A DNA stretch of 64,000 bases, from the NCBI GenBank assembly GCA_963842085.1, contig CAWJET010000001.1, positions 160,001-224,000 on the forward strand. Direction: 5' to 3'. Source of the stretch: an uncultured delta proteobacterium. Lineage in GTDB: Bacteria; Desulfobacterota; Binatia; Binatales; Binataceae. The notes under the pieces are model-generated. The model had not been told where the DNA came from, did not search any database, and saw only the letters and a program-made list of their open reading frames with translations. Position numbers and translations under genes: made by a program. Positions within the stretch are counted from its first letter, which is position 1. Each line of letters starts with the position of its first letter. Of the stretch, positions 4,522-56,761 are shown piece after piece.

Positions 4522-6860
<2,339 letters not shown>

Positions 6861-6904
6861 TTACCGAACAAGGAACCGGTGGGCTAGGAGCTTGGACCTT
6901 AGTG

Positions 6905-6961
6905 CTGTCATTCTGAAGCTGTCTCTTGCGCGGAGCGCCGAGATACAGCGGTAGAATCCCG
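6905..6961 (+). repeat. Repeat family A, left flank of GIY-YIG gene (CTGTCATTCTGAAG-variable stem-CGGTAGAATCCCG)
   Basis: The 14-nt and 13-nt arms are identical to the reverse complement of 7279-7333. The internal segment is self-complementary. Confidence 0.85.
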
Positions 6962-6972
6962 GTGCTGTTCTC

Positions 6973-7260
6973 TCACTCCTCCTCGCTTAAGTCCTTCCAC
7001 TGAGGATTCATCGATTCGATCAATTCGATCTTTCTCGAACGGAGCATGATCTTGATCTGCTTCTCGCGCGCGATCGCTTCGTTGATATCGCCGAACTCTT
7101 TGTAGTAGGCGAGACGCGTCACCTTGTAACGGGCGGTGAAGGAGCCAGGCTTCTTTTCCTTGTGTTCGAAGACGCGGCGTTCGAGGTTGTTGGTCACCCC
7201 TGCGTACAGAGTACGAGAGGGACTGCTCATGATGTACACGTAATAGGTTCGATCGCCCAT
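6973..7260 (-). CDS. Stand-alone GIY-YIG nuclease family protein (95 aa)
   Basis: YYVYIM...LYAGVTNNLERRVFEH...AIAREKQIK...NPQWKDL. ATG 7260 chosen because the longer start at 7296 lies inside the repeat. Confidence 0.9.
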   Translation of the reverse strand: MGDRTYYVYIMSSPSRTLYAGVTNNLERRVFEHKEKKPGSFTARYKVTRLAYYKEFGDINEAIAREKQIKIMLRSRKIELIESMNPQWKDLSEEE

Positions 7261-7278
7261 ATTGTAGCAGTCAAAGAT

Positions 7279-7333
7279 CGGGATTCTACCGGTCAAGTCA
7301 GCGCGAGCGCTTGCTTGACCTTCAGAATGACAG
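7279..7333 (-). repeat. Repeat family A, right flank of GIY-YIG gene (inverted)
   Basis: Reverse complement reads CTGTCATTCTGAAG-gtcaagcaagcgctcgcgctgacttgac-CGGTAGAATCCCG. Confidence 0.85.
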
Positions 7334-7381
7334 ACTCAGAGACGAATGACAGACGTCCAACCGAGACGCTGCTGCCAAGCC

Positions 7382-8083
7382 CTAACGGCGCGGGTAGCCC
7401 ATCGCGTCGAGAAAGTCGTCGAGCGTCGGAAATCGCATGTACATGTTGTGACGCTTCTGCTCGCCGATCGTCGTGCTCGATTCCGACGAGTACGCGTGCC
7501 CCGGATACACCACCGTCGCGTCATCGAGATTGCGCAACGTGTCGTTCAGGCTGTGATACATCGCCTCGGGATCCGAGCCGGGCAGGTCAACGCGCCCGCA
7601 CGAGTTCACGAACAGCGTGTCGCCGGAAATCAGGTTGCCCTCGACCAGGAAGCATTGCGAGCCCGGCGTATGCCCGGGCGTGTGGAGGAACTTCACTTGA
7701 AGCTCGCCGACGCGCACCGTGTCGCCCGCATCGACCTTGACCAGGTCGGAGTCCGCCAATCCCGCGACCTGCTTCACCCCTTCGGCCTCATGCTTGTTCA
7801 CGTAGACTTTGGCCTTCACATGTTCGAGCATCTTGGCGGCGCCCTCGATATTCTGGCCCATCATGCGCCCGCCGAGGTGATCGGGGTGGTAGTGCGTCAG
7901 CAAAATTTTGTCGATCTGGTAGCCCTCCGACTCCGCGAATTTTCGGATCGCCTCGACGTCCCACGCGGGGTCGACGACCGCCAGCTTGTGCGTTGCCGGA
8001 TCGCCGATCAGGTACACGAAATTCGCCATCGGGCCGAGCTGCGCCTGTCGCAGATAAATTTTCCTTTCACTGGTATCAGCCAT
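7382..8083 (-). CDS. MBL-fold metallo-hydrolase (glyoxalase II / persulfide dioxygenase-like)
   Basis: THYHPDH, HTPGHTPGS, SGDTLF, GRVDLPG and YPGH. Confidence 0.85.
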   Translation of the reverse strand: MADTSERKIYLRQAQLGPMANFVYLIGDPATHKLAVVDPAWDVEAIRKFAESEGYQIDKILLTHYHPDHLGGRMMGQNIEGAAKMLEHVKAKVYVNKHEAEGVKQVAGLADSDLVKVDAGDTVRVGELQVKFLHTPGHTPGSQCFLVEGNLISGDTLFVNSCGRVDLPGSDPEAMYHSLNDTLRNLDDATVVYPGHAYSSESSTTIGEQKRHNMYMRFPTLDDFLDAMGYPRR

Positions 8084-16037: not shown

Positions 16038-16901
16038 GTGGCCGCAGGCAAAGCTACTCTCCTCATCTCATGCATCGACCGCCCCGGCATCATAGCCCGG
16101 GTCGCCACCCACTTGTTCACGCTCGGCTGCAATATTATCACCTCCGACCAGTACTCCGACGACGAGGACGGCCACTTCTTCTGGCGCATCCACTTCGAAA
16201 GCTCGCGCCGCCCCATTAGCGAGCTGTCCAAGGATCTCGACGCATCGATGCCGTCGCTGCTGCCGTGGGAACGCCTGAAGTGGGCTCTGTTCGACGCCGC
16301 CAAGCGTGACCGCATTGTCATCATGGTCTCGCGCCTGCCGCACTGCATGATGGATCTGTTGAGCCGCCATCATGTCGGTGAGCTCGACGGCGACGTGGTC
16401 GGCGTCGTCAGCAACCATCCCGACCTCGAACCGCTTGCGCGCCCGTTCGAGGTTCCGTTCACCGTGATTCCGGTCCTGACAGAGCGCAAGGCCGAAGCCG
16501 AAGCCGTACTCGTAAAGCATCTCACCGAGCTGCGCGCCGACACCGTCGTCCTCGCGCGCTACATGCAGGTGCTGTCGGGCGATTTTCTCCGCGCGTGGAG
16601 CAAGCCGATCGTCAACATTCACCACAGCTTCCTGCCCGCATTCGCCGGCCAGCGGCCGCACAAGCAAGCACACGACCGCGGCGTGAAACTAATCGGTGCA
16701 ACCGCGCATTACGTGACCGAGGACCTCGACGCCGGGCCGATAATTGGCCAAGCCACCGCCCCGATGACCCATCGCGACACCGTCGCCGACCTCGCCCGCA
16801 AGGGCAAGGATCTCGAAGTGACGGTGTTAGCCAAGGCCCTGCGCGCCCACCTGAAAAAGCAGGTGCTACTACACCACAACCGCACGATCGTCTTCGAGTA
16901 A
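16038..16901 (+). CDS. purU: Formyltetrahydrofolate deformylase
   Basis: N-terminal ACT domain, LARYMQVLS, NIHHSFLPAF and GATAHYVT. Confidence 0.95.
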   Translation: MAAGKATLLISCIDRPGIIARVATHLFTLGCNIITSDQYSDDEDGHFFWRIHFESSRRPISELSKDLDASMPSLLPWERLKWALFDAAKRDRIVIMVSRLPHCMMDLLSRHHVGELDGDVVGVVSNHPDLEPLARPFEVPFTVIPVLTERKAEAEAVLVKHLTELRADTVVLARYMQVLSGDFLRAWSKPIVNIHHSFLPAFAGQRPHKQAHDRGVKLIGATAHYVTEDLDAGPIIGQATAPMTHRDTVADLARKGKDLEVTVLAKALRAHLKKQVLLHHNRTIVFE

Positions 16902-16915
16902 ACACAGCCTCTATA

Positions 16916-16987
16916 TGTCATTCTGAGTGTAGACTGCCGCAGCAAAGAATCCCGGATCCGGGTTCCTTCGCTACGCTCAGGATGACA
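16916..16987. repeat. Repeat family A, inverted doublet between convergent purU and nuoN
   Basis: TGTCATTCTGAG...AGAATCCCGG-AT-CCGGGTTCCT...CTCAGGATGACA. Confidence 0.8.
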
Positions 16988-36941: not shown

Positions 36942-37105
36942 CGCTGCCTCCGGGAAACATGCTCCCTGAGTACTGCCGATCAGAAGTAGCAGCCAGTGAT
37001 GCTTATAGTTCAACCCCCATCCACCCCACAACTTGAGAGTCTGATCCCTCGCCCGTTATTTTCACGGGATGGTAAGATTCGCTACGCTCAGTAAGACACG
37101 CAAAG

Positions 37106-48576: not shown

Positions 48577-48610
48577 TGTCATTCAGAGCCGCTGCGGCGG
48601 AGAATCCCGG
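48577..48610 (+). repeat. Repeat family A solo copy
   Basis: TGTCATTCAGAG-ccgctgcgg-CGGAGAATCCCGG. Confidence 0.75.
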
Positions 48611-53401: not shown

Positions 53402-53440
53402 CCGGGATTCTTCGCTCCGCAGACTCCGCTCTGAATGACA
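53402..53440 (-). repeat. Repeat family A solo copy
   Basis: Reverse complement TGTCATTCAGAGCGGAGTCTGCGGAGCGAAGAATCCCGG, between convergent genes. Confidence 0.78.
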
Positions 53441-54193: not shown

Positions 54194-56761
54194 TCAACCC
54201 TTGAGCGTTGCCCGCAGAGTGTTGCCCTCGCGTTTCCGGAAGCCGACTGCGACGCCGAGACGCTCGAGGTGCTGATCGATTATCTTGCCGCCCAGCCGCA
54301 CGCGATGCTCGGCGAAGAACTTCTTGACCTCGTCCTCGCGATCGAGCAGCGCGACGACAGCCTCGCACATTCGTGGCAGCGCGTTGTCGGGGTATTTTTG
54401 AATCATCTCGTCCCAGTGCGCGCGCGCAAAGTCCCACGCTTCGTAGCGGCAGGCGGGGTTAAGCAGCAGCGAATGCATCAGGTACGGCGAATTCTGCGTC
54501 CGCACCTGGCCGTCGAGCGTCATCTCCATGGTTTTTTTCAGGAGATCGCGATCGCGGAAATTCGCGAGCGCGAACAGGAAGCGCTGCTCTTCCTGCGGCG
54601 TGCGCGGCGCTTTGAATTTGCGCTTGAACTCCTCGTAGCGCGCGGCGTCGCCCGAGTGCGCGAGGATGCTCACCAGCGCCGGTATCAGGTCGCGATCGGC
54701 GGAATCGGGATTGTCCTCGAAGCGCGAATACAGATCGCGCGCGCGCTTCTGGACTTCGGGATCGTCGCCGAGCGTGCCGAGTGCGCCAATCAGCGTGCCG
54801 CGCAACTGGCGCGTTAGCTCGCTCTCGCCGGGCTTTGGCTCCCAGCCGAGACGGGCGGCGGCGGGACCGACGATCTCGCGCACCGTAGCCGCGAGCGCGA
54901 ACCGGTCCGCGTCGGACGCAATCATGTCGAGGTATGCGAATGCGCCAATCAACGCGCGCCACACATTGATGTCGGTCTCGTCGGTAAATAACCGCGCCAT
55001 CTTGAGGAACTCGCTTAGCGGGCCGAGTCCAGCGACGGTCGCCGCCCAGGTATCGCTGACCAGTCCGAAACGTTCGATCGCGTGCAGCGCGCCGAGATTT
55101 TTTGTGAGCGACGCGAGCAGCGCAGGCGCGTAGTGCACGCGATAGAAGCCGTGGCCGCCCTCGTTGAGCAGCGCCCACTCGAGCTTGCCCGGGAGATCGA
55201 CGGTCGTCTCGCGAGCAGTGAGCAGCACCTTGTGCGTCGAGACGCCTTTATCGGTCTTCGCCCGAACCATCACGGGCACATGCCAAAGCTGATCGTTGTC
55301 CTCGACCAGATAGAAGAAGCGGCGCTGCGAGAGCTTGAGCCCGCGGCCGTCAGCCGACTGCGCCGCGTCGATGATCGGAAAACCGGGCTGGAAGATCCAC
55401 GAGTCCATCATCTTGCGCACGGGCTCGCGCGACGCCGCCTCGAGCGCGTCCCACAGGTCGCTGGTCTCGGTGTTGTTGAACTGATGCTGCTTCAGGTAGA
55501 GGCGGATGCCGTCGCGAAAAATGTCGGCGCTCAAAAACTGCTCGAGCATCCGCAGCACCGCGGCGCCCTTCTCGTAGGTCAGGATGTCGAACATCGCGCG
55601 GCAGTCTTCGGGACTGCGCACCGTGTATTCGATCGGGCGCGTGCTGCGCAGCCCATCGATCGCCATCGCAGCCGCGCGCGAGACGCTGAAACTCTCCCAT
55701 CGCTTCCATTCGGGCTTCCACGCATCGACCGCCAGCATTTCCATGAAGGTGGCGAACGCCTCGTTGAGCCAGATTCCGTTCCACCATCGCATAGTGACGA
55801 GATCGCCGAACCACATGTGCGCGTTCTCGTGCGAGACCACGTCGGCGACGCGCTCGAGCTCGGCGCGCGACGCCGATTTTTCGTCGGCGAGCAGCGCGGT
55901 CTCGCGAAACGTGATCGCGCCGAGGTTTTCCATCGCACCCGACGCGAAATCGGGAATCGCGATCAGGTCGAGCTTGTCACCGGGGTACTTGAGACCGTAG
56001 TAGTCGGCGAAATATTTGAGCGAGAACGCGCCGATCTGCCTGGCCCAGGTTGTCAGCGACTCTTTGCCGGGGACGTGGACGATTCTGAGCGGCGTCCCCG
56101 CATCGACCGGCGCCGTGGCGTCGAACTCGCCGACGATGAACGCGACCAGGTAGGTGGACATCGCGATCGTCTCCTTGAAGACGACCTCCTTCTTTCCGCC
56201 GGCCAGCTTTCGCTCGGCTTCCTGCCCGCCGTTCGAAATGGCCGCAAGGTGCTCCTCGACGACCAGCGTCACTTTGTAACTGGCCTTGAGCTCGGGCTCG
56301 TCCCAGCACGGAAACGCGCGGCGCGCGTCGGTGGATTCGAACTGCGTCGTCGCGGCGACGTGGGTCTTGCCGGCAGCGTCCTGATACTGGCTGCGATAAA
56401 AGCCGTGCAGCTTGTCATTCAGGATTCCGCGAAACGCAATCTTCAGCGTCCATTCGCCCGGCGAAAGTTTCTCGGCGAAGCGGAGATGCCCGCGTTCCTT
56501 GGCCGGCTCCAGCTCAGCCTTTGCGGCGAGAGATTTTCCGCCGCGTTCCGCGCTCACCTTGTCGATTTCCAGCTCGAGCGCGTTCAGCACGACATCGTCA
56601 GTCGCCTGGTTGATGACGACGGCGATATTCACTTCGCCTTGAAACGTGAACGCCTTGAGATCCGGCGTCAGGCGAAGGTCGTAGCGCCTGGGTGTGACGG
56701 TTTTCGGCAGGCGATAGTCCTGCGTGGTATCGGCGAGGGGAGTTCCATCCTGATCGCGCAT
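54194..56761 (-). CDS. pepN: M1 family aminopeptidase (PepN / puromycin-sensitive-like)
   Basis: GAMEN, HENAHMWFG...NEAFA, YEKG and an ERAP1-like C-terminus. Confidence 0.92.
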   Translation of the reverse strand: MRDQDGTPLADTTQDYRLPKTVTPRRYDLRLTPDLKAFTFQGEVNIAVVINQATDDVVLNALELEIDKVSAERGGKSLAAKAELEPAKERGHLRFAEKLSPGEWTLKIAFRGILNDKLHGFYRSQYQDAAGKTHVAATTQFESTDARRAFPCWDEPELKASYKVTLVVEEHLAAISNGGQEAERKLAGGKKEVVFKETIAMSTYLVAFIVGEFDATAPVDAGTPLRIVHVPGKESLTTWARQIGAFSLKYFADYYGLKYPGDKLDLIAIPDFASGAMENLGAITFRETALLADEKSASRAELERVADVVSHENAHMWFGDLVTMRWWNGIWLNEAFATFMEMLAVDAWKPEWKRWESFSVSRAAAMAIDGLRSTRPIEYTVRSPEDCRAMFDILTYEKGAAVLRMLEQFLSADIFRDGIRLYLKQHQFNNTETSDLWDALEAASREPVRKMMDSWIFQPGFPIIDAAQSADGRGLKLSQRRFFYLVEDNDQLWHVPVMVRAKTDKGVSTHKVLLTARETTVDLPGKLEWALLNEGGHGFYRVHYAPALLASLTKNLGALHAIERFGLVSDTWAATVAGLGPLSEFLKMARLFTDETDINVWRALIGAFAYLDMIASDADRFALAATVREIVGPAAARLGWEPKPGESELTRQLRGTLIGALGTLGDDPEVQKRARDLYSRFEDNPDSADRDLIPALVSILAHSGDAARYEEFKRKFKAPRTPQEEQRFLFALANFRDRDLLKKTMEMTLDGQVRTQNSPYLMHSLLLNPACRYEAWDFARAHWDEMIQKYPDNALPRMCEAVVALLDREDEVKKFFAEHRVRLGGKIIDQHLERLGVAVGFRKREGNTLRATLKG

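Follow-up and report, generated by a model that had tools for sequence, protein, structure and literature searches.

A stretch of 64,000 nucleotides from an uncultured delta proteobacterium (contig CAWJET010000001.1, positions 160,001 to 224,000), referred to here as the window, carries a small gene for a GIY-YIG nuclease that is bracketed by two inverted hairpin units, and related units lie elsewhere in the window without the gene. We conclude, with a probability of about 0.8 and by comparison of sequences and analogy with tested homologues, that this gene is a member of the Ssn family (SsnA-like), and that the flanking, solo and doublet elements are its cognate hairpin repeats. This reading follows from the 44% identity of the protein to a Neisseria homologue, the conservation of its catalytic residues, its GIY-YIG fold, the enrichment of flanking repeats around homologous genes and the co-variation of the repeat arms.

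The system has been essentially known since 2025 (Chenal et al., Nat Commun 2025;16:2388, PMC11893778), and what we see here is an Ssn member in a new lineage. An earlier note on this DNA had compared the arrangement with systems of repetitive extragenic palindromes (REPs) and REP-associated tyrosine transposases (RAYTs), with a different enzyme in place of the transposase. The comparison is apt, and the published paper draws it too; as both the linkage of gene and repeats and the analogy with REP/RAYT and IS200/IS605 are already in print, the novelty that the note implied does not stand (PMC11893778). Literature searches on the pairing of gene and repeat found no relevant paper besides this one. 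The repeat class and unit length of the window lie outside the published search motif, and the local additions are modest.

The nuclease gene and the units that bracket it

The open reading frame (ORF) runs on the minus strand from an ATG at 7260 to a stop codon at 6973–6975 and encodes 95 aa. It sits in a 530-nt gap between ligA (4812–6851) and a gene for a protein of the metallo-beta-lactamase (MBL) fold (7382–8083), all three genes being on the minus strand. Residues 6–76 of the product match the Pfam GIY-YIG family (PF01541, E 1.4e-13), which is the sole family above the Pfam cut-off; a match to T5orf172 lies below it, and NCBIfam gives no family match for the protein. Pairwise BLASTP aligns 85 aa of the protein with the Neisseria gonorrhoeae homologue (record L082) at 44% identity (E 6e-23), and tblastn against a plasmid collection recovers this homologue too, at E 1e-13. 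Residues Y9, Y19 and E66, the alignment counterparts of Y6, Y17 and E64 of SsnA, do not vary among the 30 homologues of alignment A1. The AlphaFold2 model has a predicted local distance difference test (pLDDT) score of 87.5, and in a comparison with the Protein Data Bank (PDB) the predicted fold matches BH0048 (UPF0213), Slx1 and the N-terminal domain of UvrC. The closest named homologues belong to Candidatus Binatus and the Binataceae, and the family is very large, with at least 7995 homologues at E <=0.001 among 8000 candidates scored.

The description in the earlier note of a 95-aa GIY-YIG gene lying 11 and 18 nt from inverted elements of 57 and 55 nt agrees with our reading in both coordinates and arms (Table 1). 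The 14-nt outer arms (6905–6918 and 7320–7333), which the note had called identical, are 100% complementary, as are the 13-nt inner arms (6949–6961 and 7279–7291), and the interiors of the two units differ. Both units read GTC, ATTCT ... AGAAT, C. The upstream unit consists of the GTC tag, a 5-bp ATTCT/AGAAT stem around a longer private hairpin with a GGTCAAG/CTTGACC stem, and then the C; the downstream unit has the same arms, and its centroid fold pairs ATTCT with AGAAT around a GCTGT/ACAGC stem. Both private stems had been predicted in the note and appear in the folds of the units as single-stranded DNA (ssDNA), as does the proposed ATTCT/AGAAT pairing, which closes the stem in 3/4 minimum-energy folds and 4/4 centroids.

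Repeats around homologous genes

The earlier note had proposed that, if the linkage is real, the flanks of homologous genes should carry cognate repeats that vary together with the protein tree. Scanning genome contigs with a pattern derived from alignment A1 gave 602 matches, 594 of which were confirmed; the best-scoring 80 of these, each with up to 10 kb on either side, make up the homologue set, which is not a random sample of the family. Together with the window they provide 81 genes. The record titles of the 80 loci span about 20 phyla, at 50–76% identity.

The 5' arm of the window unit finds 537 matches in these loci, clustered beside the gene. When the 200-nt flanks of each gene are compared, the top gapless inverted repeat between them reaches a score of at least 11 for 53/81 genes, whereas random positions in these loci do so in 15 of 405 cases. 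For counting, we defined a strict unit as GTCAT plus three free bases, followed within 75 nt in total by the exact complement of the AT-plus-three stem and a C. There are 447 such units in 1.31 Mb, 441 of them in the 80 loci, and their density is 4.97/kb within 300 nt of the gene and 0.167/kb elsewhere, a 30-fold difference. At least one strict unit lies within 150 nt of the gene in 70/81 cases, which bears out the first expectation, and units are found on both sides in 54/81. In the published survey, at least one motif was found in 71% of the homologue regions and motifs on both sides in 42% (PMC11893778).

The orientation of the units varies among the 81 genes. An inward bracket, as in the window, is seen in 28; both units point in the direction of the gene in 14, outward in 7 and against the gene in 5, while 16 genes have units on one side only and 11 have none. 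The sequence of the arms varies as well, and does so in a coordinated manner. The 5' arms CCT, TGC, TCT and TCC are accompanied by their own complementary 3' arm in 45–67% of cases and by the partner of another common variant in 1–2%, a contrast that is due in part to one genome usually holding one variant; across genomes there are still at least six complementary variants. On the protein tree the repeat-variant labels require 29 changes (shuffled mean 43.2; 0/200 shuffles as low), in line with the second expectation. Recognition of the arm as a site like that of Hpy188I (TCTGA in the 5' arm; TCNGA) was considered and rejected, the CCT and TGC variants being without it.

Named organisms in which the same association occurs come from a tblastn search of the plasmid collection (36 records). 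On Planktothrix agardhii plasmid p1, a gene annotated 'GIY-YIG nuclease family protein' lies within arrays of units. In a chromosome-sized record of N. gonorrhoeae, dRS3-type units (NTS repeats) flank the homologue, and in Sinorhizobium meliloti the gene, located between gltA and lpxB, has the inverted bracket seen in the window.

Units and coding sequences sometimes overlap. In 8/81 genes (L008, L009, L026, L038, L039, L044, L072 and L005) the ORF extends by 24 nt into the inverted unit downstream, whose ...GAATGAC end contains the TGA that serves as stop codon; thus, in these genes, the repeat supplies the last codons and the stop. On the P. agardhii plasmids, doublets are found within annotated coding sequences of MmeI/PglX-type enzymes (L081 1266–1445; L084 459–650 and 2106–2246; L085 991–1110).

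Proposed substrate and mechanism

SsnA of N. meningitidis is a 94-aa protein assigned to cd10448 (GIY-YIG_unchar_3) in the Conserved Domain Database (CDD). It binds the 28-nt NTS repeat, which contains dRS3, solely as ssDNA (dissociation constant, Kd, 4.5 nM) and cuts a few nucleotides upstream of the motif, being inactive on the reverse strand, on double-stranded DNA (dsDNA) and on RNA (PMC11893778). Substitutions Y6A, Y17A and E64A abolish cutting, as does a change of the stem sequence that keeps the hairpin; the C after the palindrome weighs most for binding and the three bases before it weigh most for cutting (PMC11893778). Three more homologues cut their own motifs, making four tested enzymes in all (PMC11893778). 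The suggestion in the earlier note that the GIY-YIG nuclease recognises or nicks the hairpins is supported, by analogy, by this published binding and cutting and by the cognate repeats of the homologues described above. The assay of purified enzyme on different forms of the repeat, which the note had called for, has likewise been answered in print for homologues: the ssDNA hairpin is cut, and dsDNA and RNA are not (PMC11893778).

By analogy with these enzymes, the window protein would first bind the hairpin in ssDNA, as in replication, repair, transformation or conjugation. Recognition, confined to one strand, would involve the stem together with the GTC on its 5' side and the C on its 3' side, and hydrolysis of that strand would follow a few nucleotides 5' of the motif. 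In the paper, a cut of a 75-nt substrate releases a 20-nt labelled fragment, the oligonucleotide sequence places the SsnA cut 5 nt before the G of GTCAT, and homologues vary in cut position (PMC11893778). Transferred from the Neisseria substrate to the window, this distance predicts a plus-strand cut near 6901/6902 and a minus-strand cut near 7336/7337, both immediately beyond the cassette. We infer from the tested homologues that the window protein may bind and cleave its own, longer units in the same manner. The presence of the GTC and the C in both flanking units supports the Ssn assignment, because these are the positions critical for cleavage and binding, respectively, in the paper.

The published family is delimited by E <1e-10 to N. 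meningitidis SsnA (PMC11893778), and the window protein has E 6e-23, as measured against the N. gonorrhoeae homologue and not the N. meningitidis protein itself. The window also has the single GIY-YIG domain of about 94 aa, the catalytic residues and the oriented flanking hairpins with GTC and C; its repeats do not match the published degenerate search sequence.

Several observations weigh against assigning the window system to the Ssn family. The published search sequence gives no match in the window (0.32 expected in shuffles), and it covers 5 of the 441 strict units of the 80 loci, yet finds 8 in the Neisseria locus. The flanking units of the window are 50–52 nt long from GTCAT to ATC, against 28 nt for the tested NTS, and binding across so long an insertion is an assumption. 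The fold energies of the two flanking units are weak when taken alone (z -1.6 to -2.3; 4–15 of 200 shuffles as good). Of the homologous genes, 11/81 are without a strict unit within 150 nt, and the loci themselves are a top-scoring subset, hence no random sample. We read the mismatch with the search sequence, which was built from 29 mostly proteobacterial genomes (PMC11893778), as a limit of a search aid and not as exclusion from the family.

A quite different explanation is that the flanking elements work at the level of RNA, for instance as terminators, as stabilisers or as a leader that regulates the gene, and are unrelated to the substrate of the enzyme. In a transcript of the gene the units would be part of the 5' and 3' untranslated regions, and solo copies lie between convergent genes, a terminator-like placement. 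However, no Rfam family is matched by the units: in the window nothing reaches gathering score, 6850–7400 gives one chance-level match to a human long non-coding RNA model (E 7.5), and 13 homologue loci give two tRNAs only. The single terminator-like site in 6800–7450 lies inside the gene on the wrong strand and none overlaps the repeat units, and a scan of the same interval found no promoter-like site. In addition, units may point either with or against the gene, and SsnA does not interact with RNA while binding the DNA hairpin at the Kd given above (PMC11893778). We regard this explanation as very improbable.

Still less probable is a homing endonuclease of the classical, free-standing GIY-YIG kind, cutting dsDNA at a specific site, with the repeats being incidental. 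The GIY-YIG domain and the position of a small gene in an intergenic region would suit such an enzyme. Against this, the window protein has 95 aa in one domain and no DNA-binding domain, the repeats around homologues are conserved far beyond chance, and the tested Ssn homologues left dsDNA uncut (PMC11893778).

With the Ssn assignment preferred over both, the question of whom the enzyme serves can be considered. One possibility, which we rate as unlikely without dismissing it, is an ssDNA restriction function in the service of the host, in which incoming or exposed strands bearing the hairpins are cut and recombination is modulated around repeat-flanked genes. Deletion of ssnA in N. meningitidis raises transformation with repeat-bearing DNA about 5-fold, and the effect is lost with mutated repeats (PMC11893778). 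On a Planktothrix plasmid (L081 3019–3303) the gene lies between a gene of the MmeI type (type IIL restriction-modification) and drmA of DISARM, but this is a single defence-island context among 84 loci and as such anecdotal. At the window locus PADLOC returns nothing significant (best E 0.0092), and the neighbours of the gene are ligA and the MBL-fold gene, not defence genes.

The repeat class and the published search motif

The commonest unit length in the homologue set is 25 nt (107 units, 35 loci). Such a unit has a nearly invariant T, the GTC, a 5-bp stem of AT plus three variable bases, and GA opposite GA; its apex consists of a 2-bp stem followed by G and A around one free base, forming a 3-nt loop. 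Positions 11 and 17, the outer pair of the 2-bp stem, co-vary as G..C or A..T (n=107). In DNA, unusual stability is a property of tandem G/A mismatches set between a pyrimidine and a purine (pyrimidine-GA-purine) and of mini-hairpins that have a 3-nt loop of this type. Of the parts of this class, the flanking units of the window retain the tag, outer stem and trailing C, and have long private hairpins in place of the small apex; such hairpins are also present in L001, the nearest relative of the window. Long private insertions appear to be tolerated in the hairpin apex, which suggests that recognition by the enzyme is confined to the stem base and the sequence beside it, a point of importance for the use of these enzymes as ssDNA tools.

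A smaller point of novelty, put forward tentatively, is that outside Proteobacteria the prevailing repeat class is built differently from the published motif and goes undetected by its search sequence. The class missed by the published sequence is common in Acidobacteriota, Chloroflexota, Cyanobacteriota and this Binatia-like lineage; this finding, the tolerance of insertions at the apex and the agreement of repeat variants with the protein tree described below all go beyond the text and the readable supplements of the paper (PMC11893778). As this class escapes that sequence, counts made with it may understate the association of gene and repeat in those phyla.

Possible co-evolution and mobility of gene and repeat

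The earlier note had further suggested that the nuclease may drive the spread of the hairpins or that the cassette itself may be mobile. The arrangement does invite the view that the cassette is a selfish mobile element, with solo and doublet hairpins as non-autonomous derivatives or targets, nicks being made at the ends and copying being left to the host. We think this possible but not probable. It would add a role to the cutting of ssDNA hairpins and does not contradict that mechanism. The hypothesis of mobility is raised in the Discussion of the published paper, where the NTS-ssnA-NTS architecture is described as identical to that of insertion sequences and compared with IS200/IS605, REPs and BIMEs (bacterial interspersed mosaic elements), and where domestication is proposed as a hypothesis (PMC11893778).

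Several features of the loci speak for mobility. The gene-free doublet at 16916–16987 has the geometry of the cassette minus its gene. The earlier note had suggested comparing the interval between ligA and the MBL-fold gene in relatives; neither gene is beside the homologue in any of the 80 loci, so there is no such interval of a relative among them, and no common neighbourhood of the nuclease gene. Homologues at 50–76% identity are spread over the roughly 20 phyla, and many database homologues lie on contigs of 1–2 kb, as is often the case for repeated DNA. In S. meliloti (L083 2660–2820) an internally deleted cassette, composed of a unit, the last ~30 codons and an inverted unit, adjoins the full cassette; a spacer of ~125 nt is duplicated there too.

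The protein tree points in the same direction. By parsimony on the same 66 rows, the repeat variant requires 29 changes (shuffled mean 40.4) and the phylum 35 (shuffled mean 40.7), and for the TGC variant 14/15 genes fall in one tree group drawn from at least 7 phyla. These comparisons are weakened by the poor resolution of the tree, with 1/78 inner branches strongly supported, and by the derivation of the phylum labels from metagenome bins. That the protein tree is followed more closely by the repeat variants than by taxonomy fits the co-evolution of enzyme and motif that is expected, but left open, in the published paper (PMC11893778). In one metagenome bin (L020 and L026) two genes that are 68% identical at the DNA level are each flanked by their own variant, CCT or TCC.

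Other observations speak against mobility. Hydrolysis by a GIY-YIG enzyme proceeds without a covalent intermediate, and such an enzyme cannot join strands unaided; Pfam finds no transposase domain in the window protein, and inspection by eye of the window cassette reveals no target-site duplication. The inverted bracket is found in just 28 of the 81 genes, and 7 genes lie between complete doublets. The window has one gene copy in its 64 kb, and a second match is present in 2/81 sources only. In two loci (L016 4180–5000 and L039 9650–10740) the cassette occupies one common chromosomal site, where the flanking genes have 78–85% DNA identity, the nucleases are 58% identical and the repeat arrays differ, which suggests residence and not hopping. 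The L039 arrays consist of three tandem repeats upstream and five downstream, with one unit in each. On the Planktothrix plasmids the nuclease segment is replaced by a hypothetical gene and a PIN-domain gene with the same repeat array alongside, and no clean empty site is seen. The comparisons of tree, variants and loci, all of them made on sequences, fit co-transfer or co-evolution of gene and repeat, and are not proof that the nuclease moves anything.

A more speculative reading, which we hold to be rather unlikely, is that of a self-propagating element without a transposase, in which a hydrolytic ssDNA nuclease nicks the outer edges of the hairpins, and host replication or repair copies the cassette, doublets or parts of units. 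Such an element would explain the cross-phylum clades of protein and variant, the deleted cassette of S. meliloti and the tandem runs of the 5' arm alone.

These runs, in which 5' arms without the remainder of the unit are spaced 19–26 nt apart on the same strand, occur beside complete units in the window (7344–7354) and in L059 (9655–9930), and further ones are found in L058, L045, L036 and L081 (2716–2762 and 3357–3403). Same-strand pairs of arms 15–35 nt apart are present in 15/81 sources. The runs lie on the expected side of the cut, and successive rounds of cutting and repair might have left them behind.

Comparison with known systems

The window system is most similar to Ssn itself, with which it shares the single-domain GIY-YIG protein of about 94 aa, the bracketing hairpins with GTC 5' and C 3', the dispersed intergenic solo copies, the catalytic Tyr, Tyr and Glu and the 44% identity to the Neisseria homologue. 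It differs in its Candidatus Binatus/Binataceae-like lineage and in having units of 50–52 nt with private inner hairpins, as compared with 28 nt; the wider class described here differs in that its minimal form combines a 5-bp stem with two G/A mismatches in tandem and, above these, a 2-bp stem closed by a loop of 3 nt.

With REP/RAYT and IS200/IS605 systems the window shares one small enzyme gene, inverted hairpin flanks, solo and doublet copies, a short conserved tag 5' of the hairpin and, as homology would predict for the window enzyme, an ssDNA substrate. However, that enzyme is a hydrolytic GIY-YIG nuclease and not an HUH Y1 tyrosine transposase with a covalent intermediate and rejoining, and its tag is GTC and not GTAG, the tag of REPs.

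Among solved structures the best matches, in sequence as well as in predicted fold, are UPF0213 proteins (BH0048, PDB 1zg2; EF2693, PDB 1ywl), which resemble the window protein in fold and size (sequence E 2.6e-5; for the model, fold E 2.7e-4 and template modelling (TM) score 0.61). This similarity is far below that to the Neisseria Ssn homologue. The modelled fold also matches Slx1, at TM 0.45–0.55 and E 0.01 or weaker, and this structure-specific endonuclease likewise has a GIY-YIG core, which acts on DNA with branches or hairpins; beyond the core Slx1 contains a zinc-finger domain, and it depends on Slx4. GIY-YIG homing endonucleases of the I-TevI type resemble the window protein in their catalytic domain and in the selfish-looking placement of their genes between others. 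They have a separate DNA-binding domain and cut dsDNA, whereas the window protein is a bare domain. GIY-YIG enzymes are typically modular (PMC11893778, Introduction).

Hairpin units across the window

The gene-free copies that the earlier note had listed at 16916, 48577 and 53402 are all present, as is a degenerate one, now placed at 37065–37098 (Table 1), and the complete gene-free copies lie between gene ends. The 5'-arm 12-mer TGTCATTCWGAR occurs 7 times in the window with at most one mismatch, against 0.52 expected, and 0/100 shuffles reach 7; one of these matches, at 56413, is in apparent coding sequence and is probably due to chance. The inner arm alone is not significant in the window, with 9 matches at up to two mismatches against 4.8 expected (2/100 shuffles reach 9).

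Table 1. The putative ssn-family gene and the hairpin units of the window.
Feature	Position	Strand	Remarks
Putative ssn-family gene, 95-aa single-domain GIY-YIG nuclease (P0001)	6973..7260, stop codon included	-	Translation, Pfam
Hairpin unit upstream of the gene	7279..7333 (55 nt)	-	18 nt from start codon; strict unit 7282-7331
Hairpin unit downstream of the gene, inverted	6905..6961 (57 nt)	+	11 nt from stop codon; strict unit 6907-6958
Partial extra copy of the 5' arm	7344..7354	-	Direct repeat with 7325-7335, 11/11 identical; 19 nt outside upstream unit
Gene-free doublet, two inverted units, 5' arms outward	16916..16987	.	Between convergent ORFs ending at 16901 and 17005
Solo unit, intergenic	48577..48610	+	One outer-stem mismatch, ATTCA versus AGAAT
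Solo unit	53402..53440	-	Same ATTCA/AGAAT mismatch; just past the end of a minus-strand ORF
Degenerate unit	37065..37098	-	Read directly; missed by pattern searches

The doublet folds as a single long hairpin of -17.5 kcal/mol (z -4.9; 0/200 shuffles as good). The two solo units have one stem mismatch in common, and the units that flank the gene pair perfectly.

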